Of a DNA stretch of 64,000 nt, positions 5,609 through 26,686 are shown piece by piece (the first letter of the stretch is position 1; each line of letters begins with the position of its first letter). The stretch comes from Patescibacteria group bacterium (GTDB lineage: Bacteria > Bacillota > UBA4882 > JAAYXC01): NCBI GenBank assembly GCA_050260175.1, contig JBLNBS010000053.1:9815-73814 (forward strand). The letters are read 5' to 3'. The notes beneath the pieces were generated by a model. The model did not search any database and had not been told where the DNA came from. It saw only the letters and a program-made list of their open reading frames with translations. The translations under genes and the position numbers were made by a program.

Positions 5609-6049
5609 TCAGACCAGGTACCAGACAACAAGCTTGGCAAGCCAACAGAGCGCGGAAGCCGCGGCCATCTGGGGCAGGTTCGCCTGCACGCGGACAGCGA
5701 CCGCCCGCCCGGCCAGCGTGGCGCCGAGCATGACCAGGGTGAGGCCGGCGAGATAGAGATAGAAGGGCGCGCCCAGTGGATGGGCGAGCAGGGCAGGGAG
5801 CAGGCGGCCGTGGGCCATCAGGCTAAAGCTCGTGGTCATGCCGCAGGTGGGGCAGGGCACGGAGGTCAGCGTATAGAGCAGGCAGGGCGGCAGCAGGAGC
5901 TGGGTGTGCGTGCCCACCAGGGCCGGCTCGGGGCGCAAAAAAAAGGGCGCCAGCGTAGCAAGCGCCCCGAGGGCCAGGACGGTAAGCTGATCGGTGGTCG
6001 GGCGCCGGCGCCCGGGTATGAAGACGAGCCTGCACGGCCACCATGTCAT
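5609..6049 (-). CDS. DUF2752-family small membrane protein
   Basis: ATG at 6049 with GGGAGG 8 nt upstream. The CPTCGMT motif resembles the CPxCGxTR signature I recall for DUF2752. Several TM segments. Confidence 0.55.
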   Translation of the reverse strand: MTWWPCRLVFIPGRRRPTTDQLTVLALGALATLAPFFLRPEPALVGTHTQLLLPPCLLYTLTSVPCPTCGMTTSFSLMAHGRLLPALLAHPLGAPFYLYLAGLTLVMLGATLAGRAVAVRVQANLPQMAAASALCWLAKLVVWYLV

Positions 6050-6090: not shown

Positions 6091-6687
6091 TCAGGCCTGC
6101 GCGGGTGTCGGCGGCGGCACGGCCCCGGCCGGCGCGGACAGCGTCCCGGTCATGTCCGCGTACAACACCGCCCCGGCCATCGTGGCGATGCTGGCCGTGA
6201 CGAGGACCCCGACGCAGCAGACGAGGATGCCCGAGATGCCGATCAAAAAGCTCAGGACGGAAAAGCCCAGGAATTTACCGTAATGCCTGCTGGCCGTCTG
6301 CCACGAGGCCGAGATGGCCTTGTCCCAGGAGAGGCCCCCGTCGATGACAAAAGCGTATGTAAGGACGAAGAACGGATAGAGAAAGAGCCCGGGCAGGAAG
6401 CAGAGGATGAAGGAGACACCCAGGATCAGGCTGACGATGAGCCCGGCCAGGAATGCGTCCACGAAACGGTCGAAACCGCGGAAGATGTCGCCGAACTCCG
6501 GCGCGGTGCCGCGCAGGGCCTTGAGCGTCACGAACATGATGCTGCACATCACCGGCCCGAGGAGCAGGCCCGATGCGGCGCTGGAGATCATGTTGACGAG
6601 GAAGACACCGAGGATGAAGACCAGAGGGTAGCGCCAGAGCAGATCCCAGGCCTTGCCGAAATAGGATCCGACGGTCATGAGAGACAT
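6091..6687 (-). CDS. Polytopic membrane protein (DUF975/YciC-like), upstream partner of the DUF2752 gene
   Basis: Start MSLMTVGSYFGKAWDLLW at ATG 6687; four or more TM helices. The tool's longer N-terminus (start 6723) is probably 5' leader. Sits 40 nt upstream of the DUF2752 gene on the same strand. Confidence 0.55.
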   Translation of the reverse strand: MSLMTVGSYFGKAWDLLWRYPLVFILGVFLVNMISSAASGLLLGPVMCSIMFVTLKALRGTAPEFGDIFRGFDRFVDAFLAGLIVSLILGVSFILCFLPGLFLYPFFVLTYAFVIDGGLSWDKAISASWQTASRHYGKFLGFSVLSFLIGISGILVCCVGVLVTASIATMAGAVLYADMTGTLSAPAGAVPPPTPAQA

Positions 6688-7027
6688 CACTCCCCTGGAG
6701 TCTGTGCAGCCGGCCCGATTCATGGTCCCGGAGCACTGACTCCGGTTATAAGTGCCACGCGTTCAGCTGTGTCCGGTGATCCATGGCGCTACAGGCGCAG
6801 GCTCCCTGGCGCCGGGATGTGAAGAAACTTGCCGCCCGCGGCGTGATTAACAGGACAATTATACCATGAGCCGGAGGGGCGGGCAACGCAAACTCCCGCT
6901 AGCGCCAGGTGGTTTTTTACTTTACGTGTCCGCACTGGAAAAGTTGTGATAAACTCACCCTTGTTCACACCGCCTCTACCGAAAGCGTCGGTAAAGACTC
7001 AAACCCCGGGCGGCGCGGCTCCGCGCC

Positions 7028-7057
7028 TTGACACGCGCGGCCGGCGCGTGCTAAAAT
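7028..7057 (+). promoter_or_regulatory. Sigma-70-type promoter for the tRNA-Ser genes
   Basis: TTGACA (7028-7033), 18-nt spacer, TAAAAT (7052-7057). Predicted transcription start about 11 nt before the tRNA 5' end. Confidence 0.5.
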
Positions 7058-7068
7058 GATTCTGCATC

Positions 7069-7156
7069 GGAGGGGTGTCCGAGCGGTTTAAGGAGACGGT
7101 CTTGAAAACCGTTAGGCTGCAAGGCCTCGTGGGTTCGAATCCCACCTCCTCCGCCA
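7069..7156 (+). tRNA. tRNA-Ser, anticodon TGA (UGA); CCA encoded
   Basis: GGAGGGG acceptor stem pairs with CCTCCTCC (one G-U pair). Anticodon loop CTTGAAA. Long variable arm. T arm GGGTTCGAATCCC. 3' CCA at 7154-7156. Confidence 0.85.
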
Positions 7157-7221
7157 AGGAGCCTGTGCGCGTAATGCCACGGACCACTAGATACAGTGGT
7201 ACCGCGTGGCACTTGATACCA

Positions 7222-7267
7222 GAGTTTGTGCTCCGGATGCCATTAATCAAGTTAGTCGCACAAACTC
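7222..7267 (+). other. Hairpin in the inter-tRNA spacer: GAGTTTGTGC, 26-nt loop, GCACAAACTC
   Basis: Perfect 10-bp inverted repeat. An additional hairpin at about 7186-7216 (GCCACGG ... CCACT AGATAC AGTGG ... CGTGGC). Confidence 0.4.
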
Positions 7268-7316
7268 CAGGGGAAAGAGTCAAAAAGTCGAAAAGTTATA
7301 AAGTCATGGTTTTTAC

Positions 7317-7408
7317 GGAGAGGTACCCAAGCCGGTCGAAGGGGACGGTTTGCTAAACCGTTAGTGGTCGTAAGGCCAGCGGGGGTTCGAATCCCCCCCT
7401 CTCCGCCA
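7317..7408 (+). tRNA. tRNA-Ser, anticodon GCT (GCU); CCA encoded
   Basis: GGAGAGG pairs perfectly with CCTCTCC. Anticodon loop TTGCTAA. Long variable arm. T arm GGGGGTTCGAATCCCCC. CCA at 7406-7408. Confidence 0.85.
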
Positions 7409-7416
7409 AAGATCAA

Positions 7417-7449
7417 CGGGGTGGTCAAGATGACCACCCCGTTTTTTTT
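7417..7449 (+). terminator. Rho-independent terminator after the tRNA pair
   Basis: CGGGGTGGTC, loop AAGAT, GACCACCCCG, followed by eight T residues. Confidence 0.75.
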
Positions 7450-7598
7450 CGATATCCTGGCGGCCGGCGCCCAATCGCGATCCTGGAGTGGGTCAAGGAC
7501 AAGGGAGCGCGAACGATGACGATACCCCTTCGTACGATTCAACTTTCTTGGCCCGAGTACAGCGGATGTAAATTGATCAACAAAAGCGCGCGGAATGG

Positions 7599-7607
7599 TG
7601 GTATAAT
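7599..7607 (+). promoter_or_regulatory. Extended -10 promoter element (TGgTATAAT) for the small HTH gene
   Basis: TGNTATAAT lies about 45 nt upstream of ATG 7652. The RBS GAAAGGTGG is 7 nt before the ATG. Confidence 0.4.
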
Positions 7608-7651
7608 ACCTGAAGAAGATCGTCTGTACTTTAAAGAAAGGTGGTATTCGG

Positions 7652-8077
7652 ATGCCAAGAGCGTACAGGACGGACCGGACCAAGTATGAAGGGGCGATTC
7701 GGGAGGCAAGAGTCAGCTACTTCAAGGATCTTTTGGCCCCCTATGTCAAGGAAGGTTATCTGGACACCAAGGCTCTGAAGGCCAAGAATCCAAAACTCTA
7801 CGAGGAATTCCGCATCGGCTTCAAGGGCATCAGGGCGGGATGCGCCGCTCTGAATCTCCCCACGTCCCAGGCGGCGATGCGGGCCAAGGTGGGCCCGGTG
7901 CGCAGGCAGATGAAGACGCTGGCCATCGCCTATATCGAGGAGAACGGCGCGGAGGCGGCGGCGGACAGAATGGGAACGAGCGTGGAACACGTACAGGAGC
8001 TGCTTACCGAGCTGAAAGCGCCGCCGAAACCCAGGACTTACAGGCGCAAGCCCGGAAGGCCGGCAAAGAAGAAGTAA
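7652..8077 (+). CDS. Small basic DNA-binding protein (HTH-like segment plus C-terminal AT-hook-like tail RRKPGRPAKKK)
   Basis: Strong RBS and its own promoter. GC is about 59%, lower than its neighbours. GRP core with a Lys/Arg tail. Confidence 0.6.
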   Translation: MPRAYRTDRTKYEGAIREARVSYFKDLLAPYVKEGYLDTKALKAKNPKLYEEFRIGFKGIRAGCAALNLPTSQAAMRAKVGPVRRQMKTLAIAYIEENGAEAAADRMGTSVEHVQELLTELKAPPKPRTYRRKPGRPAKKK

Positions 8078-8124
8078 ACAGGGCGGCGCGTCATCTACCT
8101 TCACATACCAAGACTCGAAAACCA

Positions 8125-8157
8125 GGAGGCACCTCACACCGGGGTGCCTCCGCTTTA
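8125..8157 (+). terminator. Stem-loop terminator after the HTH gene
   Basis: GGAGGCACC, 9-nt loop, GGTGCCTCC, then GCTTTA (weak U-tract). Confidence 0.4.
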
Positions 8158-8316
8158 TGAAATGGGCAATTTCAACGGTCGATTGGATACTGCCGGCGGA
8201 ATTTGGCTTGGCAAATCTGTGCAGGATTGCCAAAGAGCGGCGGCGAAGTATACCGCGCCCATTGCCAGGGTGGGCGAGTCTTTCGACGGAGCGGAGGACG
8301 GGGCGGGGTGGCCGTC

Positions 8317-9141
8317 ATGAATTGGCATCCCATGCGCGCGGGTGATCTTCTGGACGCGGCGTTTCGCGGCTACCGGCGGTTTTGGGGCCCCTCCCTGGCG
8401 GCGTACGGGTGTTTTTGCCTGCCCAGCGCTCTCGTCTCAGCGGGAGCTTCAGCCTTGGCGCAGGATGCGCGGGCCCCGTTCATAGTCCGGGTCGACCTCC
8501 TCCTGCTCGCCCTGGCGCTCACCCTTCTTTCCGCGCTCCCTCTTGCCTTGGCCGAGATCGTTTGCGCGCGCGCCGTATTGAACGCCGCCAGGGGCGAACC
8601 GGCCACGGCGGGAGCCGTCTTTGCCCGCCTGCGCGGGCACTGGTGGCGCCTTTTTACGGTCGCCCTGGCCAAGGACTTCCTGATCGGTTTGGGCCTCATG
8701 GCCTGCCTGGTGCCTGGGATCGTCCTGGCCGTCAATTACGCGGTGGCCGTACCGGCCGCGATGGACGAGAATCTGTGCGCGGGAGAGGCGCTGCGGCGCA
8801 GCCGCGCCCTGATCACGATCTCGTCCTCCAGGGGCAAGACATTATTGCTTCTCGTTCTCCTGAGCCTCATGGGTTACGTGGTTTCTCTAGCCATGAACGC
8901 CGCCATGGCGGGGGCTTCGGCCATCACCAGCGGCTTCGTAAATCTGAGCCCGGCAGTGCTTTTTACCGGGCCGGCAGGCCTCTGGCAGAACGCCCTGGCC
9001 GAGGCCGCAGACAGGCTCTTCATTCCCCTGGGCGGGCTTTTGTGGGCTTACTACTTTCTCGATCTCAAAGCGCGGCGGGAGGGCGCCGATCTCGTCATCA
9101 CCCTGGATGGATCCGCGGGCGGCGCCGGGGTGGGCCTATAG
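8317..9141 (+). CDS. Polytopic membrane protein (GPDPase-membrane-domain/DUF-like), paralog 1
   Basis: Start MNWHPMRAGDLLDAAFRGYRRFW. The tool's 38-aa N-terminal extension is likely leader. Six or more TM helices. The N-terminal motif (DAAFR-YRR) is shared with the next gene. Confidence 0.55.
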   Translation: MNWHPMRAGDLLDAAFRGYRRFWGPSLAAYGCFCLPSALVSAGASALAQDARAPFIVRVDLLLLALALTLLSALPLALAEIVCARAVLNAARGEPATAGAVFARLRGHWWRLFTVALAKDFLIGLGLMACLVPGIVLAVNYAVAVPAAMDENLCAGEALRRSRALITISSSRGKTLLLLVLLSLMGYVVSLAMNAAMAGASAITSGFVNLSPAVLFTGPAGLWQNALAEAADRLFIPLGGLLWAYYFLDLKARREGADLVITLDGSAGGAGVGL

Positions 9142-9171
9142 ATTGGTGATATCAGGCTCGTCGATAAAGGA

Positions 9172-10032
9172 GTGAACGGCGTGGCATATGAGTTCCGCCC
9201 CCGCGGCGTGGGCGAGATCGTGGACGCCGCCTTTAGAATCTATCGCAATCACTGGTGGACGCTGGTCAAGAGCGTGGGCGTCATCCTCCTTCCGCTCGGT
9301 TTCCTTCAGGCCGGGCTCCAGTCCCTGAGCCAGTACGCCCTCTTCCGCCTCGGCAACATGGGCGGGGACGCCAGTCCCGGCGCGGTCCTGGGCACCCTGG
9401 GCCTGACCCTCTTCGGCCAGGTGCCGGCCCTCCTCTTTGTCCTGGCCAACCTGGCCACCGAGGCCATCGTGACCAAGGAGGCCGCCATGGCCTGCCACGG
9501 CGAGGAGCCCACCCTCAACGCGGCCTGGGCCGCGGTCAAGGAGCGCCTGGGGCAGATCATCGGCGCCGGGCTCCTGTTTCTCATCATGACCGTACTCGGC
9601 TTCTGTTGCTGTTGTATCGGCGCGCCGGTGGTGATGGTCTTTTTCGCCCCCCTGACCGCCCTCATCCTGATCGAACGGGCCGGGGTCGGGCAGGCCATCC
9701 AGCGCAGCTTTAACCTGGTCAAGGCGGAGTTCTGGCGCGTGCTCGGCGTGATGCTCGTGCTCTTTCTGATCCTGGGCGTGGTGGGCGCGGCCCTCTGGCT
9801 CGTGGTCGGATTCGCGCTGGGTATGAGCGCCGGCAGGGATCTGCTCCGATTCATCTCGGCCATGAGCGGGGCGAATCCCCTGGTATATTTCCTCATCTCG
9901 TTTTTCACCACCATCTACAGTATCGTTCTAGCCCCGCTCTATCCCATCGGGCGGACGCTCATCTACTACGATCTGCGCGTGCGATTGGAGGGTTACGACC
10001 TCGAGCAAGCTACCGTCGGTACGGAATCCTGA
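9172..10032 (+). CDS. Polytopic membrane protein, paralog 2 of the preceding gene
   Basis: N-terminus EIVDAAFRIYRNHWW parallels GDLLDAAFRGYRRFW of the previous gene. Both end in a YYxxDL...EG motif. Confidence 0.6.
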   Translation: MNGVAYEFRPRGVGEIVDAAFRIYRNHWWTLVKSVGVILLPLGFLQAGLQSLSQYALFRLGNMGGDASPGAVLGTLGLTLFGQVPALLFVLANLATEAIVTKEAAMACHGEEPTLNAAWAAVKERLGQIIGAGLLFLIMTVLGFCCCCIGAPVVMVFFAPLTALILIERAGVGQAIQRSFNLVKAEFWRVLGVMLVLFLILGVVGAALWLVVGFALGMSAGRDLLRFISAMSGANPLVYFLISFFTTIYSIVLAPLYPIGRTLIYYDLRVRLEGYDLEQATVGTES

Positions 10033-10053
10033 TTCTGGGAGCTGTTTGCATAC

Positions 10054-11028
10054 TTGTACAGGGTCATGACGTTCATGGCCGCCCTTGCCCTGCTTTGGTG
10101 CCTCGGCGCCAGGCCGGCCGCGGCCGGCGACCGCGCCGCCGACTACCGGGCGTGGCTGGCCAGGGAGGAGCGGTTCGTCAGGCGGGCCGCGGACGCCTGC
10201 CGGCGGACGGGGGGCGCCTCCCTGGGGCCCCTGCGTCGGGCCGCGGCACTGGCCGCCTCGCCCGGGCCGGGGTTGTCACCCGAGGACACGGCCTGGCTCG
10301 CCAGGGACTGCGCCCGCATCCTGGAGGCCAAGCCGGCCGCGCGCCAAGGCATGCTCGCCGGCCTCATGGCCAGGATCGGGGCGTACCGGCGAGCCACGCT
10401 GATCCCGCCCCCGGGCGTCGATCCCGAGCGGGCACGGGCGGAACTGCGCCGCGTCTTTTCGCGGCCGGAGTTTGCCTGGCGCGTCCAGCGCCAGCCGTGG
10501 TGGCGCAAGCTGTGGCTGCGGATCATGGACCTGTTCAGGCGGTGGCTCAACGCCGTGTTCTCGGCTCCGGCGACCGGCAGGATCGTGGTGGCCGTGGCCG
10601 CCGTGGGCGCCGTGCTCCTTTTGGCCCTCGTTTTCCTCGCCATCCGGGGGCGGCCGCGCGGCACGGCCGAGACCGGCGCGGGGACGGACGCCGCGTCGCA
10701 GGCCGGCGGCCGGGGGGGGCGTAGGGAGGATCTGCGCCGCCGGGCCGAGGAGGCGGCCCGGGACGGGCGGTTCCGCGAGGCGGTGCGCCTGCTCTACGTG
10801 GCGCTCCTGCAGGAGCTGGACCGGATGGGCCTGATCAAGCTCGCCAAGGCCAAGACGAACTGGGACTACCGCCGCGAGATCGAGGCGGGCCACCGGCGGC
10901 TCTCCCCCGTCTTCCGGAGTTTTACGGATCTATACGAGCTCAAGTGGTACGGCCAGGACGACTGCCGGGCCGGCGACTACGAGCGCGCGCGCACACTCTT
11001 TGACGAGGCGAGGGGGGCGGCGCGGTGA
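10054..11028 (+). CDS. DUF4129 domain protein (transglutaminase-associated domain), N-terminal signal/TM
   Basis: The C-terminal region LLYVALLQELDRMGLIKLAKAKTNWDYRREIE...FTDLYELKWYG resembles DUF4129. The tool gives a TTG start. Confidence 0.65.
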   Translation: MYRVMTFMAALALLWCLGARPAAAGDRAADYRAWLAREERFVRRAADACRRTGGASLGPLRRAAALAASPGPGLSPEDTAWLARDCARILEAKPAARQGMLAGLMARIGAYRRATLIPPPGVDPERARAELRRVFSRPEFAWRVQRQPWWRKLWLRIMDLFRRWLNAVFSAPATGRIVVAVAAVGAVLLLALVFLAIRGRPRGTAETGAGTDAASQAGGRGGRREDLRRRAEEAARDGRFREAVRLLYVALLQELDRMGLIKLAKAKTNWDYRREIEAGHRRLSPVFRSFTDLYELKWYGQDDCRAGDYERARTLFDEARGAAR

Positions 11029-12191
11029 GCCGCAGGGGCGCGCTCTGGCTGATCCTCGTGGCCGTGCTGGCTATCGCCGCTTACGTGGCGCTCGCGCTGG
11101 GAACCAACCGCCGGAAGCCGGCCGCTCATTCCACCTACACCGCCGCGCCCAATGGCTGCAAGGCGGCCTACCTCTTCCTCGGCCACAGCGGGTTGCGGGT
11201 CAAAAGAAAAACGACCGCCTGGACAGAGCCGCCGCCCGCCGGGGGGCTCCTCGTGGTCACGGAACCCACGCGTGGTGTGACCTCGCGGGAAAGAATCGCC
11301 CTGCGCCGGTGGGTATTGAGCGGCGGCACAGTGCTAATCGCCGGCGCCAATCCCTGGGGCCTCTGGTCCGTGGGGGGCAAACCCGCCATCGGCGCCTCGA
11401 CGGTCGAGCCGTTCCGCCCCCTCGTACCGTGCGGCCTGACCGCGGGCGTGGAGCGCTTTCACATGGCCGCGCCGCTGCGCCGCGTGGGACCCTTCCGCGG
11501 CCTTACGCCGCCCGTGGCTTTGGCGGAGGACAGGTTCGGGGCCGCGCTCGTCCTGGCCGCATACGGACGGGGCCGGGTCGTCCTGGCGGCGGATCCCGCC
11601 TTCCTGACCAACGAGCGGCTGAAACTCCACCCGGATCACGCGCTCTTCCTGCTCAACCTGGCCAAGTCCAGCGGGGGAGGGCGGGTGGAATTCGACGAGT
11701 ACCACCTCGGTTTCGGCCGGGCGGCAAAAGCCGACGCGGCGCCGGCCGGCCTGCCGCCCATCATTTCGGCTGTCTGGTGGCAGCTGCTCCTCCTCGCGGC
11801 GGCCTATTTTTACATGACAGGCAGGCGGTTCGGCCGCCCGCTCGCCCTGCCGGAGACCGGGGGTCGCACGATCGCGGAGTACGTCAACTCCCTGGCCAAC
11901 CTCTACCTGCGCGTCCAGGCGGGCACGGCGGCCCTGGACCACCTCTACCACGGGCTCCTGGAGCGCCTCTACCTCCTGACCGGCCTCTCCGCGAGAACAG
12001 CCCCGGAGATCCTGGCCGGAGCGGCCGCGGCGCGCCTGGGCGCGGACGCGGAGGACCTGCGGGGGCTCCTCGCGCGGTGCCGGGCGGCCCTGGCCCGGGA
12101 ACGGATCGCCCCCGCCGAGCTCGCAGCCCTGGCAAAGCGCATCGACCACTACCGGAAGGAGCTTGAGAGATGGGTTACGTTGCCGAGCTAG
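11025..12191 (+). CDS. DUF4350 domain protein (N-terminal TM anchor)
   Basis: 4-nt ATGA overlap with the upstream gene. Characteristic position in MoxR/DUF58 clusters. Confidence 0.65.
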
Positions 12192-13120
12192 CCGCGGGTG
12201 TCCGCGCTGAGATGGCCAAGGTGATCGTGGGCCAGGACGAGGCGGTCGAGAGCCTCCTGATCGGCCTCCTGGCCGAGGGCCACCTCCTGCTGGAAGGCGT
12301 GCCCGGGGTGGCCAAGACGCTGATGGTCAAGGCCCTGGCCGGGATCGTCGGGGCGGATTTCAAGCGGGTGCAGTTCACGCCGGACCTGATGCCCGCCGAC
12401 GTCATCGGCACCAATATCTTCGACCTGCACGCCGGGGAGTTCCGCCTGCGCAAGGGGCCGATCTTTACCGACCTGTTGTTGGCGGACGAGATCAACCGGA
12501 CCCCGCCCAAGACCCAGGCGGCGCTCCTCGAGGCCATGGAGGAGCGGCAGGTGACCATCGACGGCGAACTGCATCCCCTGGGCGACCTTTTTACCGTCAT
12601 CGCCACGCAGAACCCCGTGGAGTACGAGGGCACCTATCCCCTGCCCGAGGCGGAGCTGGACCGGTTCATGTTCAAGGTGCTGATCCAATATCCCGGCGTG
12701 GAGGAGGAGGAAGACCTGCTCCGCCGCCACCAGCGCGGTTTTAGGCCCCGCGATCTCGCCACGGCGGGACTTGCGCGGATCGCGGATCGCGAGGCGATCG
12801 CTCGTTGCCGCGCGGAACTGCGCGCGGTGGTGGTGGAGGACGGCATCATCGGCTACCTCAACCAGATCGTGCGCACGACGCGGGCCTGGCCCCACGTAGC
12901 CCTCGGCGGCAGCCCTAGGGCCGCCGTCAACCTGCTCCTGGCGGCCAAGGGGGCGGCGGCCGTGGCCGGGCGGCAGTTCGTCGTCCCCGACGACGTGCAG
13001 CGCATGGCCTATCCCGTCCTGCGCCACCGGCTCATCCTGCGGCCCGAGGCCGAGATCGAGGGCCTGCGCGCGGACGACGCGATCAAGAGCATCATCGCAG
13101 AGATCAAAGTGCCGAGGTGA
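12170..13120 (+). CDS. MoxR-family AAA+ ATPase
   Basis: [33 protein letters not shown] (Walker A). Sensor and arginine regions are conserved. RBS AAGGAG. Confidence 0.9.
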
Positions 13121-14508
13121 CGGTCATGCCACCCCTGGCCCTGATCCTCGCCCCGGTCATCCTGGGCCTTGTCCTGCGCTCCCTTTTTACCTGGCGTTTC
13201 TTGGCCCTGGCCGGCCTGGGAGTGCCCTTTATCCTGCTCGGGGCCCGCGCGGGCCAGCCCCCCACCGCCCTGCTCCTGGCCTACGACGGCCTGCTCTTCT
13301 GCGCCTGCCTCCTGGATTATTTCCTCACTCCCCGGCCGCGCCGGTTCACCCTCACGCGCCGCGTGGACGGGGTGCTCTCGCTCGGCGAGCCCAACCGGGT
13401 GGCGGTGGAGGTGGAGTACCGCGCCGGCGCGCGCTCAGGATACCGGACCCGCCTCCTGGTCCGGGACGAGCCGCCGCCGGAGTTCGAGGCCGGGGACGGG
13501 GGCACGATGACGGCCGTGCTCGCCCCGGGCCGGACGGCGCTCCTCTCCTACACGGTGCGGCCGCCGCGGCGTGGGCTGCACCATTTCGGCCGCCTGCACC
13601 TGCGCTACCGCGGGCGGCTGGGCCTCATCGTCCGCCAGGCCCGCTACGAGGCGGCGGCCGCGGTCAAGGTCTACCCCGACGTGCTCATGGTGAAAAAGTT
13701 CGAGCTTTTGGCCCGGGCCGGCCGCCTGACCGCCATGGGCTTGAGAGCTGCCAGGCTGCGCGGCACGGGCACGAATTTCGAGAGCGTGCGGGAGTACGTG
13801 CCGGGCGACGAATACCGCTGGATCAACTGGAAGGCCACGGCCCGGCGCGGCCGGCCGCAGACCAACGAGTACCAGCTCGAGCAGGTGCAGAACGTCTTTC
13901 TGCTCTTTGACACCGGCAGGATGATGGTCACCCGGGCGCGCGGCATGGCCAGGCTGGACCACGCCATCAACGCCGGCCTCATGCTGGCCTACGTGGCGGC
14001 TGGCAAGGGCGACCGCGTGGGGGCCATGGCATTCGGCGAGGAGATCCTGGGCTACCTGGCGCCCGGCAAGGGCCGCGGCCAGGTGGCGCGCCTCACGGAG
14101 TTCCTCTACCCCCTGCAGGCGGAGATGGTCGAGTCCGACTACGCCAGGGCCTTCGCCCATTTTGCGGCCAAGAACCACAAGCGGGGCCTGGTCTGCGTCT
14201 TTACCGACCTCATCGACGAGGAGGTCTCAGGCCTGCTCCTGGCCCACATGGCCGCCCTGGCGCCGCGCCACATCCCCCTCTGCGTGGCGCTGCGCGACCC
14301 ATTGCTGGACGAGGCGGCGCGGGAGGAGATCGCCGAGGCCCGCACCATCTACACCAAGGCCGTGGCCGAGCAGGTCCTGGCCGACCGGGCACGGGCCAGG
14401 CGTTTTCTCGAGCGCCGCGGCGTGCTGGTCGTGGACGTGCCGCCCGAGGAGATGAGCGTGGCGGTGGTCAACAGGTATTTGGAGTTGAAGGAGCGGGGGA
14501 GGATCTAG
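13117..14508 (+). CDS. DUF58 protein (vWA-like partner of MoxR). Start GTG 13117 or ATG 13126.
   Basis: [42 protein letters not shown] is the DUF58 core. The 4-nt overlap with the MoxR gene indicates coupling. Confidence 0.85.
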
Positions 14509-14547
14509 GGCCGGGGGGACGGGGTGAAGGGGTGACTAGGTGAAGGG

Positions 14548-14596
14548 GTGAGAGAACCGAGCCGGCGGCGGCCTATAGACCGCCGCTATTCTCACC
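14548..14596. terminator. Bidirectional stem-loop between the convergent DUF58 and amidohydrolase genes
   Basis: GTGAGAGAA ... GCGGCGG CCTATAGA CCGCCGC ... TTCTCAC. Three copies of GAAGGGGTGA occur within 14520-14720. Confidence 0.4.
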
Positions 14597-14732: not shown

Positions 14733-15542
14733 TCACCCCGGCATGACCGAAAGCGCTCTCCCCAACATCCGCCCCGCGTTCCCCGCCAGGATCGCCTCCT
14801 CATCCGCCGCCGCCAATCCCAGCCCACGGATCTGCGCCACGGCCTCCCCCTGGTCCCCCCACGGCGAGTCGCTACCAAAGAGGATGCGGTCCGTCCCGTG
14901 AGCCAGGATGATCTCCCGCATGTCCTCGGCGCCGAGCTTGTGAAAGCAGTATGAGGTGTCGAGGTAAAGCGGCCGGCCGACGAGATGCTCCCGGGCTTCT
15001 TTCCAAAGGAGGTACCCGCCCAGGTGCGCGGCGATGAAGCGGCCGCCGGGGAAGGCGTCGATGGCGCGGCGCAGCCTGGCGGGCGTGCAGTGGCACGGCT
15101 CGGGGAGCCCCAGGTCCACGCCGGCGTGGAAGAGGATGGCAAGCCCCGCCTCGCACAGGGCCTCGTAGAGCGGGAAGACGGCCGGGTCGTCGACGAAGAA
15201 ATCCTGGTAGTCCGGGTGGAACTTGACGCCGAGGAGGCCCAGGTCTTTGAGGCGCGCGATCTCGCCGCGCCAATCCGGGGTGGCGGGGTGGATGCTGCCA
15301 AAGGCCAGGATCCTCGCCGAGCGGATGGACACGGCCCAGCCGTTGACGCTCCTCTCCTGGCCCGGCCGGGTGGCGATGGGCTGGACGACCGCGATGTCGA
15401 TCCCGGCCCTGTCCATGGACGCCGCCAGGGCGCCCAGGGTGCCGTCGAGCGCGGTCCCGATCCCCGCCCTTGCCGCCATGGCGGGCACCGCCCGCCGGGC
15501 GAGGTCGTCCGGGAAACAATGGACGTGGAAATCGAGGATCAA
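14733..15542 (-). CDS. Amidohydrolase-2 family metal-dependent hydrolase (TIM barrel); proposed TTG start
   Basis: AAAGGAG then 8 nt then TTG gives MILDFHVHCF, a canonical Amidohydro_2 N-terminus. The tool's upstream extension to 15728 is probably 5' leader. Confidence 0.7.
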   Translation of the reverse strand: MILDFHVHCFPDDLARRAVPAMAARAGIGTALDGTLGALAASMDRAGIDIAVVQPIATRPGQERSVNGWAVSIRSARILAFGSIHPATPDWRGEIARLKDLGLLGVKFHPDYQDFFVDDPAVFPLYEALCEAGLAILFHAGVDLGLPEPCHCTPARLRRAIDAFPGGRFIAAHLGGYLLWKEAREHLVGRPLYLDTSYCFHKLGAEDMREIILAHGTDRILFGSDSPWGDQGEAVAQIRGLGLAAADEEAILAGNAGRMLGRALSVMPG

Positions 15543-15922
15543 AGCTAGTACTCCTTTAGATCTGGCATTGGCGGGTACAATTCCACGCCGGATTGAGGAT
15601 ATCCTGCGTTGAATGATCCTGGTCGTTCCCCCTATCCCCGTGCGATCCGCTAAATTGTCCTGACGGAGGAGGGGTGCAATATATTGCGCCACTACACAGG
15701 ACCGATAGGTCGAAAACCTTTTCACCATTGGATCCTTGATCGGCTTTTAAGTCAACCGGTCTAGGCTTCATCGACCAACCCTTGCTCCCCCCGGGAGATA
15801 GAGGGCCTCTTCTTCGACCATCCCCAAGATCGGCGTGAACGTTTAGCCTCTCCGCCTCCCGATCCCCCGCCCGCTGCGCATACTACCTTTGCGAATCGAG
15901 ATCAAAAAGGAAGCGAAACGCC

Positions 15923-18001
<2,079 letters not shown>

Positions 18002-23995: not shown

Positions 23996-26686
23996 CTACC
24001 TCCCCACCTGCTTCCGCAGATCGGCCAGGATCTGCTGCTGGCGCCTGATGGCGTCCTGCTGCGCCCGGATGCTCTGTTCGAGCTCCTCGAGCAGGCGGAC
24101 GAGCTGATCCCGGGTCAGGCCCTCCGTGACAGCCGCCTGGCCGGGGCCAGGACCGGCCGGCGTTGCCGGCGGCGCCGCCCCGGTAAGCTGCGCCAGGGCC
24201 TCCTGCAGGTTGCTGCCGTAGGCGATACTATTCTTGTAGACGAGGACCACGAGTTTCAGCTCGGGCTGCTGGCCCTGCTCGGAGACGATGTAGACCGGCT
24301 CCACGTAGAGAAAGTCCCCGGCAAAGGGCAGGACCAGGAGATTGCCGCGGATGACCGAGGACTGCTGCTGGCCCCAGAGCGTCATGAGCTTTGAGATCTC
24401 GGGGTTCTGGGCGATCCTGCCCTCCACCTGGATGGGGCCGTAGATGATGCGGTCCTTGGGCAGGAGATAGACCAGGACCTGTCCGTAGTTCTCCCCGTCA
24501 CAACGTGCCGCCATCCAGGCGATCATGTTCTTGCGCCTGGGCGCGCTGGGCTTAAGGGGTTCCATGAGCACGAACTCGGCGTCCGCCTCGCCCGGCAGGC
24601 GCAGCATGAGGTAGTAGGGAGCGAGTTCCTCCTCCTGGCCCATGTAGGTCTCGGTGGGCACGGCCCAGGCGTCCTCTTTTTGAAAGAACGTCTTGGTGTC
24701 CCGCATGTGGTAGAGGAGGAGCATGTCGCGCTGGATGGTGAAGAGCCGCTCGGGGTAGCGCAGGTGGTCCCGGATGCTCTGCGGCATCCTGTCCCCGGGT
24801 GTGAAGAGCCTGGGGAAGACGCGCTGCCAGACCCGGATGATCGGATCTTCCCGATCGACCACGTAAAAGGTGGCCGTGCCGTCGTAGGCGTCGACCACGG
24901 CCTTGACCGAGTTCCTGACATAATTGATCCCGGTCCCCGCGTGGCGGGCCGCGTAGGGGTAGTTGGCGCTGTAGGTGTAGGCGTCGATGAGCCAATAAAG
25001 CCGTCCGTCCGCCATCACGAGGTATGGATCGGGATCGTAGTCGAGAAAGGGGGCGAGCTTGCGGACGCGGTCGGCCACGCGGCGGTAGAGCTGCACCTTG
25101 CTCTCGGGCGTGATGTATTCGGAGAGGACGAATTTGAAATCCCCAAAACGCAGGGCAAAGAGCAGACGTACCCAGAACGAGTCAAGCGGCACGCCGTCCT
25201 TGCCGGTGTAATCCGTGGTGATGTTCTGTTCCGACTCTGTGGGGTAGTCGAACTCGTGCAGGGCGTTGGGGGCGATGGTGTACTCGTTCTGGATCTCGCC
25301 GAAATAAACCTGCGGGCGGGTGACGGGGGGGAGGCCGGTGCCCGGGGCCACGCGGGGCGGGATGTCGCTGACCAGAAAGACCGGCTGCCCCTCGGGATTG
25401 ACCTCGCTGACCCCGTTCAGGACCAGCCCGTAGCCGTGCGTGTAGGCGAGATGGAGATTCTCCCAGTTCTGCGCGTTCGCCTGCAGCTGGGACGTGTCCA
25501 GTTCCCTGGCGGCGAGCATGACCTCGCGCTTTTGGCCGCCGATGACGTAGCGGTCGATGTCCATGTCGTTAAAGGTGTAATACTGGCGCAGGGCCTGCAG
25601 TTGCTCGTAGGAGAGCTGCAGGGTCCGGAAATCCCAGAGCCGCATGTTGGTGATGGTGGGACTGTCCTGGCTGAGCGCTTCGGCGGTGCGGCCGAGCGGA
25701 TAATCCCTGGTCACAAAACGGTCGAGCCCGAACGCCTTGCGCGTCATCTCGATGTGCCGGGCGAGGTACGGCTTTTCCCTGATGTACCTGTTCGGCCCCA
25801 CGACCAGGGCGTTGACCACGCCCGGGGCGATGCTCCCCAGCACAAAGGAGGAGGCCAAAAGCAGCGCGACGCCGCCCAGGAGCAGTCTGGCGCCGCGGCG
25901 GAACAGCCCCACGCCAAGGACAGCCACGCACCCCGCGGCGATCCAGGAGAGGGCGGTATAGACCGGCAGGCGGACGTGGGCCGCCGTAAAGTCCACGCCG
26001 GTCACGAGCCCCGTCTCGGCGAGGAGCAGGCCCTGCCGCGCCAGGGCGTAGTCCCAGATCTTGGCGGCAAGGAGGAGGGCCGCCAGGATGGTGAGATGGA
26101 TCTTGGCCTGCGACCGGAGGATGAAAGTCCTGCCCTGGCGCCAGAAGGCCCGGGAAGCCCAGTAAACGAAGCCCGTGCCCAGGAGGGCCATCCAGAGCAG
26201 GGTTTGCAGCAGACGGTTGAGGCTCCGCCAGATCGGGAACTGGAAGAGATAGTAACTCACGTCGCGATGCAGGATCGGGTCGGCGACGCCCATGCGGACG
26301 GGATGCAGGAACTGCTGCACCGCAGCCCAGCCCGGGTTGAGCGCCGAACCGATCAGCAGGGCGAGGAGAGCGCTGACGGCGAGATTGGCCCAGCCCCAGG
26401 GGATCCTGTCAAGTTGCAACTGGCTCCAGACGCCGCCTTGCTCCTCCGCGGGGTGCGGGCCTCTCAGTGCCCGCAGCGCCAGGCTGAAATTGAGGAAGAA
26501 GAAGGTAAAGGTTACGGCCCACGCCAGGAGCCGCAGGATCCAGCCGGTGGCGAAGGCCGTCCAGAAGACCGCGGTCAAACCCATGCTCCGGAACCAGAGC
26601 CAGTCCGTGAAGAAACTCGTCCCGGCCATCAGGAGCACGAGGACCAGCACCGCCAGTCCGACCGCGAGCCAGATTACCTTGCGCAT
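23996..26686 (-). CDS. UPF0182-family large membrane protein
   Basis: 896 aa. N-terminal multi-TM region with a TDWLWF motif, followed by a large extracytoplasmic domain. Confidence 0.8.
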   Translation of the reverse strand: MRKVIWLAVGLAVLVLVLLMAGTSFFTDWLWFRSMGLTAVFWTAFATGWILRLLAWAVTFTFFFLNFSLALRALRGPHPAEEQGGVWSQLQLDRIPWGWANLAVSALLALLIGSALNPGWAAVQQFLHPVRMGVADPILHRDVSYYLFQFPIWRSLNRLLQTLLWMALLGTGFVYWASRAFWRQGRTFILRSQAKIHLTILAALLLAAKIWDYALARQGLLLAETGLVTGVDFTAAHVRLPVYTALSWIAAGCVAVLGVGLFRRGARLLLGGVALLLASSFVLGSIAPGVVNALVVGPNRYIREKPYLARHIEMTRKAFGLDRFVTRDYPLGRTAEALSQDSPTITNMRLWDFRTLQLSYEQLQALRQYYTFNDMDIDRYVIGGQKREVMLAARELDTSQLQANAQNWENLHLAYTHGYGLVLNGVSEVNPEGQPVFLVSDIPPRVAPGTGLPPVTRPQVYFGEIQNEYTIAPNALHEFDYPTESEQNITTDYTGKDGVPLDSFWVRLLFALRFGDFKFVLSEYITPESKVQLYRRVADRVRKLAPFLDYDPDPYLVMADGRLYWLIDAYTYSANYPYAARHAGTGINYVRNSVKAVVDAYDGTATFYVVDREDPIIRVWQRVFPRLFTPGDRMPQSIRDHLRYPERLFTIQRDMLLLYHMRDTKTFFQKEDAWAVPTETYMGQEEELAPYYLMLRLPGEADAEFVLMEPLKPSAPRRKNMIAWMAARCDGENYGQVLVYLLPKDRIIYGPIQVEGRIAQNPEISKLMTLWGQQQSSVIRGNLLVLPFAGDFLYVEPVYIVSEQGQQPELKLVVLVYKNSIAYGSNLQEALAQLTGAAPPATPAGPGPGQAAVTEGLTRDQLVRLLEELEQSIRAQQDAIRRQQQILADLRKQVGR

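Follow-up and report, generated by a model that had tools for sequence, protein, structure and literature searches.

A six-gene MoxR-DUF58 operon with two tandem membrane protein genes as a further member of a widespread, uncharacterised bacterial cluster

We analyzed 64,000 nucleotides (nt) of contig JBLNBS010000053.1 (GenBank assembly GCA_050260175.1, positions 9,815 to 73,814 of the forward strand; hereafter the window, with positions counted from its first letter), in which six genes at 8317-14508 join a MoxR-family ATPase and a DUF58 protein to several membrane proteins. All six lie on the + strand in the order P1, P2, DUF4129, DUF4350, MoxR, DUF58, as a preliminary description made from the letters and their open reading frames (ORFs) had listed them. 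P1 (8317..9141, 274 amino acids (aa)) is an extra, divergent copy of a polytopic membrane protein, and the public pipeline places its start at GTG 8308, 9 nt earlier than 8317. P2 (9181..10032, 283 aa) is the canonical copy, with an AAGGAG followed 7 nt later by the GTG start at 9181 in an ORF that opens at 9172. The DUF4129 gene (PF13559; 10054..11028, with a likely start at ATG 10066 or 10075 inside the ORF from 10054) is followed by the DUF4350 gene (PF14258; 11025..12191), the gene for the MoxR-family AAA+ ATPase (AAA_3 and AAA_lid_2; 12170..13120) and the DUF58 gene (PF01882; 13117..14508, alternative ATG at 13126). When checked against Pfam, the DUF4129, DUF4350, AAA_3 and DUF58 assignments proposed in that description were all above the gathering score.

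Three of the five gene junctions overlap: DUF4129/DUF4350 by 4 nt (GTGA at 11025-11028), DUF4350/MoxR by 22 nt (12170-12191, the MoxR ATG at 12170 having GGAAGGAG before it) and MoxR/DUF58 by 4 nt (GTGA at 13117-13120). The other two are short gaps of 30-39 nt (P1/P2) and 21-42 nt (P2/DUF4129), and the ORF table holds no earlier in-frame start for either the P2 or the DUF4129 gene. The preliminary description had counted four overlaps of 4 to 22 nt and taken all six genes to be translationally coupled; the overlap sizes hold, while the number is three, and because of the two gaps, with no earlier start for either downstream gene, coupling throughout was an overstatement. The start/stop overlaps of the unit are also kept in homologous loci. 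Upstream, the unit is bounded by a GC-rich hairpin followed by GCUUUAU (8125..8151, +; RNA fold -22.9 kcal/mol, z -4.8, with 0 of 200 shuffles as good), and downstream by a second hairpin (14547..14596, +; -25.5 kcal/mol, z -2.6) between DUF58 and a convergent amidohydrolase gene (14733-15728, - strand; Amidohydro_2, 4.8e-25). No sigma-70-like promoter turned up ahead of P1 in a simple scan. Terminator-like stems within the operon were weak (5-7 bp) and occurred at about the background rate (7 versus 4.2 +/- 2.3 in shuffles). Given the three overlapping junctions, the two gaps of at most 42 nt, the flanking hairpins and the convergent downstream gene, we conclude that the six genes are one operon.

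P1 and P2 align over nearly their full lengths with 26% identity (BLASTP, E 3e-13) and are true but distant paralogs, as had been proposed. The N-terminal and C-terminal motifs noticed in both proteins also proved real and are conserved across the whole family to which they belong, here called P: the former reads D..F[RK].YR (consensus L.P.G.GD.LD..FRLYR.NF), the latter Y.D.R.R.EG.DL (consensus LLY.D.R[VI]R.EG[YF]DLE), and a central motif, E..G...A..RS..L, lies between them. Residues ~9-46 of P2 align with residues ~168-205 (GVGE.VDA.FR.YR against GVGQAIQRSFNLVK), which suggests an internal two-repeat architecture for the family. In Pfam and NCBIfam, P1 and P2 gave only sub-threshold matches, to GPDPase_memb, DUF7847 and UPF0259/YciC; within the DUF7847/GPDPase_memb superfamily P2 reached 20.9 bits against a cut-off of 29.6 and 15.9-16.2 bits against one of 28.7, and P1 matched UPF0259 alone, at 13.8 bits. 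Among 24 cluster-linked P proteins, 10 matched GPDPase_memb (best 1.5e-8) and 5 matched DUF7847, and some family members pass the Pfam cut-offs outright (P0078 and P0143 for DUF7847, P0143 and P0170 for GPDPase_memb). On the strength of these members, P1 and P2 are placed, transitively through their homologs, as divergent members of the DUF7847/GPDPase_memb superfamily.

The two P genes differ in how widely they occur. Clear P2 orthologs stand upstream of DUF4129 in the nearest longer relatives (L002 and L008), each of which has a single P gene. Orthologs of P1 were found only on two short metagenome contigs (L006, L007, P0017, P0032), where they too form a tandem pair. P1 is a lineage-specific extra copy of P, and the pair of paralogous heads, which the preliminary description had presented as a feature of the system, is absent from nearly all loci, these being single-copy.

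The P structure superposes on the fold shared by CysZ and the CTL (SLC44) proteins. A profile of 24 P proteins found no CysZ or CTL chain in the PDB at E <=1, no P protein matched the EI24, CysZ or Choline_transpo families of Pfam, and a sequence-level link from P to any solved structure is absent. Long P-family proteins contained no informative domain fusions, only zinc ribbons and low-complexity tails. By its modelled resemblance, a CysZ/CTL-like fold would fit a conduit or core subunit equally well as a chaperone substrate. One could picture a transport system in which P, acting as a CysZ-like permease, carries an anion or other small solute, the outside domain of DUF4350 binds or presents the ligand, and MoxR-DUF58 is merely an assembly or gating factor. 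We regard this as unlikely: P has no sequence similarity to CysZ, no substrate is indicated, P is wholly absent from some loci, and for CTL/PNS1 proteins of the same fold, whose function is disputed, a 2026 study argues against transport and for a non-transport role (PMC13160678).

The topology of the remaining proteins, as of P, was taken from a crude hydropathy scan combined with the positive-inside rule. The scan gave P about six transmembrane (TM) helices, with the conserved charged motifs, among them D15, E165/R175/S176 and Y262-D273, at their cytoplasmic ends, and found the N-terminal hydrophobic segment that had been noted in both the DUF4129 and the DUF4350 protein, together with an internal TM in each that had gone unmentioned. 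The DUF4129 protein (3.9e-10, 40.1 bits against a cut-off of 24.8, residues 247-316) is predicted to consist of a signal-like N-terminus, an outside region of ~140 aa, one TM (about residues 168-192, or 160-194 at the widest) and, C-terminal to it, the cytoplasmic DUF4129 domain; conservation over 49 homologs shows the outside region to be short, helical and poorly conserved. The DUF4350 protein (1.9e-22, 80.8 bits against 30.4) has a predicted N-terminal TM, an outside alpha/beta domain closed by an invariant FDEYH.G motif, and a second TM followed by a conserved GRRFGRP and a cytoplasmic helical tail. Its outside domain was modelled as ThuA/GIFT/GATase1-like and resembles the scaffold domains of OST48 and IFT52, in a weaker model with a predicted local distance difference test (pLDDT) score of 66.7.

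MoxR is predicted to be cytoplasmic, and its translation has an intact Walker A (GVPGVAKT), Walker B (LLADEINR) and sensor 1 (ATQNP). It matches AAA_3 (8.5e-64, 213.8 bits against a cut-off of 27) and AAA_lid_2 (2.2e-20, 72.6 bits against 22.7), and its closest solved structure is 2r44 (1.5e-78), a PDB entry named just 'Uncharacterized protein'. The DUF58 protein (9.5e-28, 97.3 bits against 23.4) is predicted to begin with a TM hairpin region, after which comes a DUF58/vWA-like part in the cytoplasm; six K/R residues follow the last TM. Its match to VWA_2 reached only 0.039 (15 bits against 27). At the position of the DxSxS of the metal ion-dependent adhesion site (MIDAS) of vWA domains it reads D-T-G-R-M, against a 22-homolog consensus of 'DaGR.M' (in the clade, D-[AT]-G-R-x-M); the metal site is degenerate and lacks the motif of a functional MIDAS.

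Because k-mer-limited homolog searches returned few relatives (15 for P2, 2 for P1 and 11 for DUF4350), homologs were instead collected by scanning genome and metagenome contigs for sequence patterns and by an exhaustive profile search, which against 1.84 billion representatives gave 44,700 P-family matches at E <=0.001 and 4,389 at E <=1e-30. A metagenome scan anchored on P (motif RVR[HLR]EGYD[LI]) found 516 relatives, the best 80 of which were examined; the scan was built on a narrow alignment, so that the sample is biased towards P2-like proteins. Counting only loci with enough downstream sequence, DUF4129 lay downstream of P in 63 of 63, DUF4350 in 44 of 44, MoxR in 31 of 33, DUF58 in 22 of 28 and a divergent SpoIIM-like gene in 17 of 23. 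P2 homologs on contigs that could be judged had DUF4129, DUF4350, MoxR and DUF58 directly downstream in every case (L002, L003, L004/L005, L090/L091), and the five-gene core in the order of the window recurs widely (L002, L003, L008, L030, L045, L051, L073, L085, L086, L090, L093-L098 and others). To the core of P, DUF4129, DUF4350, MoxR and DUF58 the full, seven-gene form adds a SpoIIM-like gene in divergent orientation and an RDD gene; it was recognised from precomputed Pfam labels in the metagenomic loci L003, L004, L090 and L091; in L003 it is flanked by housekeeping synteny (smc, ftsY, rnc, plsX).

A second scan, of a genome collection and anchored on DUF4350 (motif FDEYH[HL]G[FY]), found DUF4350 relatives in 446 species genomes. 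Among the neighbourhoods of the best 80 loci, DUF4129 adjoins DUF4350 in 47, and a P-family gene lies directly upstream of DUF4129 in 38 of these 47, under at least ten phylum-level labels; P stands ~2 kb upstream in two more and downstream in one. The labels at these DUF4350-anchored loci include Acidobacteriota, Armatimonadota, Vulcanimicrobiota, Verrucomicrobiota, Planctomycetota, Poribacteria, Chloroflexi, Symbiobacterium and Deltaproteobacteria, among others. The linkage of P with DUF4129-DUF4350-MoxR-DUF58 is near-obligatory and far beyond chance. A failure of the membrane proteins to co-occur with MoxR/DUF58 in related genomes, for which the preliminary description had suggested looking, was not seen; in other genomes P is almost obligatorily linked to the pair.

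This recurrence leaves next to no room for the view that the six genes are unrelated neighbours merely resembling a unit. The two junctions of five that are short gaps instead of overlaps would fit such a view; the order recurs in dozens of loci and many phyla, with DUF4129 and DUF4350 invariably downstream of P wherever they could be counted. Conserved order and housekeeping flanks in distant phyla also speak against a MoxR-vWA-type system for anti-phage defence or conflict. MoxR does have a secondary Pfam match to bpMoxR (2.4e-11, 43.6 bits), and ternary conflict systems with MoxR and vWA components are described (Kaur et al. 2020, cited in PMC12067865). The AAA_3 match is far stronger than the bpMoxR match, no beta-propeller or effector gene is present and none of the six proteins matched PADLOC, so that we consider a conflict system very improbable. 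A defence role was rejected on the lack of a PADLOC match, the dominance of AAA_3 over bpMoxR and the housekeeping flanks in distant relatives.

In DUF58, DUF4350 and DUF4129 a K/R-rich stretch comes after the last TM, and such stretches also flank P; all four membrane proteins (P, DUF4129, DUF4350 and DUF58) are predicted to show conserved parts on the cytoplasmic side, within reach of MoxR. The preliminary description had spoken of a membrane-embedded MoxR system. Co-occurrence in other genomes and the predicted cytoplasmic-face topology make a single membrane-embedded system a reasonable reading; its further proposal, that the paralogous membrane proteins are substrates or scaffolds, meets the alternative of a conduit or core subunit raised above. 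We somewhat favour the interpretation that the locus is a local version of a widespread cluster, expressed as one operon and encoding an inner-membrane complex that is assembled or remodelled by cytoplasmic MoxR-DUF58. The products would form one inner-membrane complex with P as its polytopic core and, in this lineage, P1 as an extra core subunit. The DUF4129 and DUF4350 proteins would span the membrane, each exposing one domain on the outside and keeping a conserved one in the cytoplasm (the DUF4129 domain in one, GRRFGRP and the helical tail in the other). DUF58, anchored in the membrane and with its vWA-like part on the cytoplasmic side, would recruit the MoxR hexamer, which would spend ATP to assemble, activate or reset the P/DUF4129/DUF4350 assembly through these cytoplasmic handles. 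The useful work may be done at the outer face or by way of P, and would most likely concern the handling of the cell envelope.

Several observations weigh against this interpretation. The window copy has no SpoIIM-like and no RDD gene, jackhmmer finding neither in the whole 64 kb, and the sampled loci are phylogenetically non-independent. Desulfomonilaceae-type loci are without P. Many Acidobacteriota loci show no DUF58 beside MoxR and carry an inserted TauE-like gene; in this Pyrinomonadaceae/Acidobacteriota variant (L052 at 6354-13028, also L054, L056, L057, L063, L074, L083 and L084) a sigma-54 response regulator stands upstream of P, a TauE/SafE-type membrane protein lies between DUF4350 and MoxR, and DUF58 is not adjacent to MoxR. 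Many Blastocatellia loci have DUF4350 and no MoxR whatever. They belong to a second DUF4350 context, mostly Blastocatellia (L009-L029, L037-L039, L043, L044, L046, L048, L064, L066, L068), in which a secreted protein of ~800 aa is encoded directly upstream and DUF4129, MoxR and DUF58 are missing; its DUF4350 proteins share 29-33% identity with that of the window and rank among its closest matches. The topology comes from the crude hydropathy scan and not from a dedicated predictor, the DUF4350 model is moderately confident only, and, as DUF58 has no canonical vWA metal site, what is usually assumed for MoxR-vWA pairs may not carry over directly. That the products form a complex, and in which direction MoxR acts, we infer from gene linkage and topology only.

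The genes could also encode a machine for envelope assembly, secretion or remodelling with a link to cell-wall growth or division. An envelope component would then be exported or positioned by the membrane proteins, with MoxR driving the assembly. The SpoIIM-like gene of the full cluster and the likeness of the DUF4350 outside domain to the OST48 and IFT52 scaffolds would fit such a machine. A secretion or membrane-remodelling complex of arCOG01314 (DUF4350), MoxR and vWA proteins was predicted by Makarova et al. 2015 (PMC5898192), and co-immunoprecipitation with Rv0954, a divisome protein of M. tuberculosis, recovered Rv3694c and Rv3695 (PMC8093794). That co-immunoprecipitation list is long and unvalidated, no conserved cargo gene stands beside the cluster, the window copy has no SpoIIM-like and RDD genes, and the Pfam matches of the six proteins include none of the Ig-like and S-layer partners known from the archaeal version, no dedicated search having been made. 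On balance we hold the envelope machine to be improbable, to about the same degree as transport. Returning to the MoxR-DUF58-remodelled inner-membrane complex that we favour, a bolder form of it would make the very large family of DUF7847/GPDPase_memb-type proteins the CysZ/CTL-fold membrane core of an ancient envelope machine of many phyla, whose assembly or gating by MoxR-DUF58 passes through the cytoplasmic tails of DUF4129 and DUF4350. This form is doubtful, slightly more so than either of the two rival readings just named; if true, the cluster would supply the first defined client of MoxR-DUF58, and the CysZ/CTL fold would gain a bacterial working context.

Outside the operon, a remote and shorter P-family member, P3 (6091..6723, - strand, 210 aa, multi-TM), was recovered by jackhmmer from P1/P2 (3.5e-17). 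Its best phmmer match to P-family representatives is 2e-8, the C-terminal motif is absent and no Pfam family matched it. Encoded on the other strand and separated from the operon by two tRNA-Ser genes, P3 is probably not part of it. Its gene sits between these and a DUF2752 gene (5609-6049), and the syntenic locus L002 has the DUF2752 gene without P3. The two tRNA-Ser genes, upstream of the operon on the + strand, occupy 7069-7156 and 7317-7408 (anticodons TGA and GCT), and the second is followed by a terminator (7415-7443, +) with a 13-bp stem and a T-run. Between this terminator and the operon, a 141-aa ORF (7652-8077, +), which is a gene in the public assembly, precedes the hairpin at 8125-8151; it has no Pfam match, is absent from the syntenic locus L002 and is unrelated to the six-gene unit. 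Just past the amidohydrolase gene lies a gene for a 692-aa thioredoxin-like DUF255 (Thioredox_DsbH) protein (15923-18001, +), which is unlinked to the cluster in other loci. Farther downstream, ARAGORN reports an 80-nt tRNA-Lys (TTT; 24826-24905, - strand) with its anticodon at position 39, on which the Rfam tRNA model is silent at its gathering score. The window has a G+C content of ~66%. In the NCBI record the source of the 79.8-kb contig is given as 'Patescibacteria group bacterium' (ACM3X6_04670/04675), and the closest DUF4350 relative goes under 'Bacteroidota'; the taxonomic labels look unreliable.

MoxR-DUF58 pairs are among the commonest bacterial AAA+ modules without an assigned client, and in the cluster described here one such pair keeps company, across many phyla, with a constant set of at least four membrane partners, by annotation also at M. 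tuberculosis Rv3689-Rv3695. What is new here is the near-obligatory P linkage, together with the CysZ/CTL-like fold of P, the degenerate DUF58 metal site and the clade-specific duplication; the contribution of the window itself is small and lies in that lineage-specific duplication of the membrane subunit. We found no literature linking DUF4129 with DUF4350 or with MoxR and no paper assigning a function, and a Geobacter cobalt paper and an M. smegmatis sigF paper contain only single genes in expression tables.

The arrangement is not a new combination; it is a widespread cluster, usually with SpoIIM-like and RDD genes, that is annotated in mycobacteria as Rv3689-Rv3695 (PMC8191103). An expression table for Mycobacterium chelonae gives the same order at the MoxR2 locus (BB28_RS01875-RS01900 in M. 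chelonae), with M. tuberculosis counterparts: membrane protein Rv3689, (Rv3690), DUF4350 Rv3691, MoxR Rv3692, DUF58 Rv3693, SpoIIM-like Rv3694c and RDD Rv3695, and the listed M. chelonae cluster genes changed expression together in that one data set (PMC8191103). Slow growth of BCG reportedly requires Rv3691 (PMC2685279). By annotation the window shares this gene order, Rv3689 being a P-family member by position and annotation only, and differs in its two tandem P genes and in having neither a SpoIIM-like nor an RDD gene.

The archaeal arCOG01314 (DUF4350)-MoxR-vWA system, predicted to be a membrane-bound secretion or membrane-remodelling complex by Makarova, Galperin and Koonin in 2015 (PMC5898192), places the same three core families in operons, and the window likewise combines DUF4350, MoxR and a vWA-type protein. 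In their description the archaeal DUF4350 protein combines a signal segment with a flavodoxin-like/GldG-like domain on the outside and a TM at its C-terminus, and its operons include Ig-like/S-layer-type partners (arCOG02884 and relatives); DUF4129 goes unmentioned in the paper, and no P-type membrane protein is described in the section concerned. Partners of the arCOG02884 type gave no Pfam match among the six window proteins, in Pfam results that included no dedicated search for them.

With the MoxR (MRP subfamily)-DUF58-vWA operons, namely Bacteroides Bat, mycobacterial moxR1 and bifidobacterial PFNA, the window shares a MoxR gene directly followed by a DUF58 gene. It lacks their BatA/BatB-type vWA, TPR, transglutaminase, FN3 and kinase genes and has P, DUF4129 and DUF4350 as partners instead; Bat-operon and PFNA readings were rejected on the absence of these defining partner genes. 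TgpA-type transglutaminase membrane proteins, in their Pfam architectures, carry a C-terminal cytoplasmic DUF4129 after a TM and are encoded beside MoxR-DUF58, whereas the DUF4129 protein of the window has no transglutaminase domain; by analogy, this suggests that DUF4129 is a recurring link to the MoxR-DUF58 ATPase pair. Compared with the CysZ sulfate permease and the CTL/SLC44-type proteins (PNS1, CTL1), P is without detectable sequence similarity and has conserved cytoplasmic motifs of its own. Set beside these systems, the window cluster is a further member of a known, widespread and uncharacterised cluster, from which it differs mainly in its lineage-specific duplication of P.

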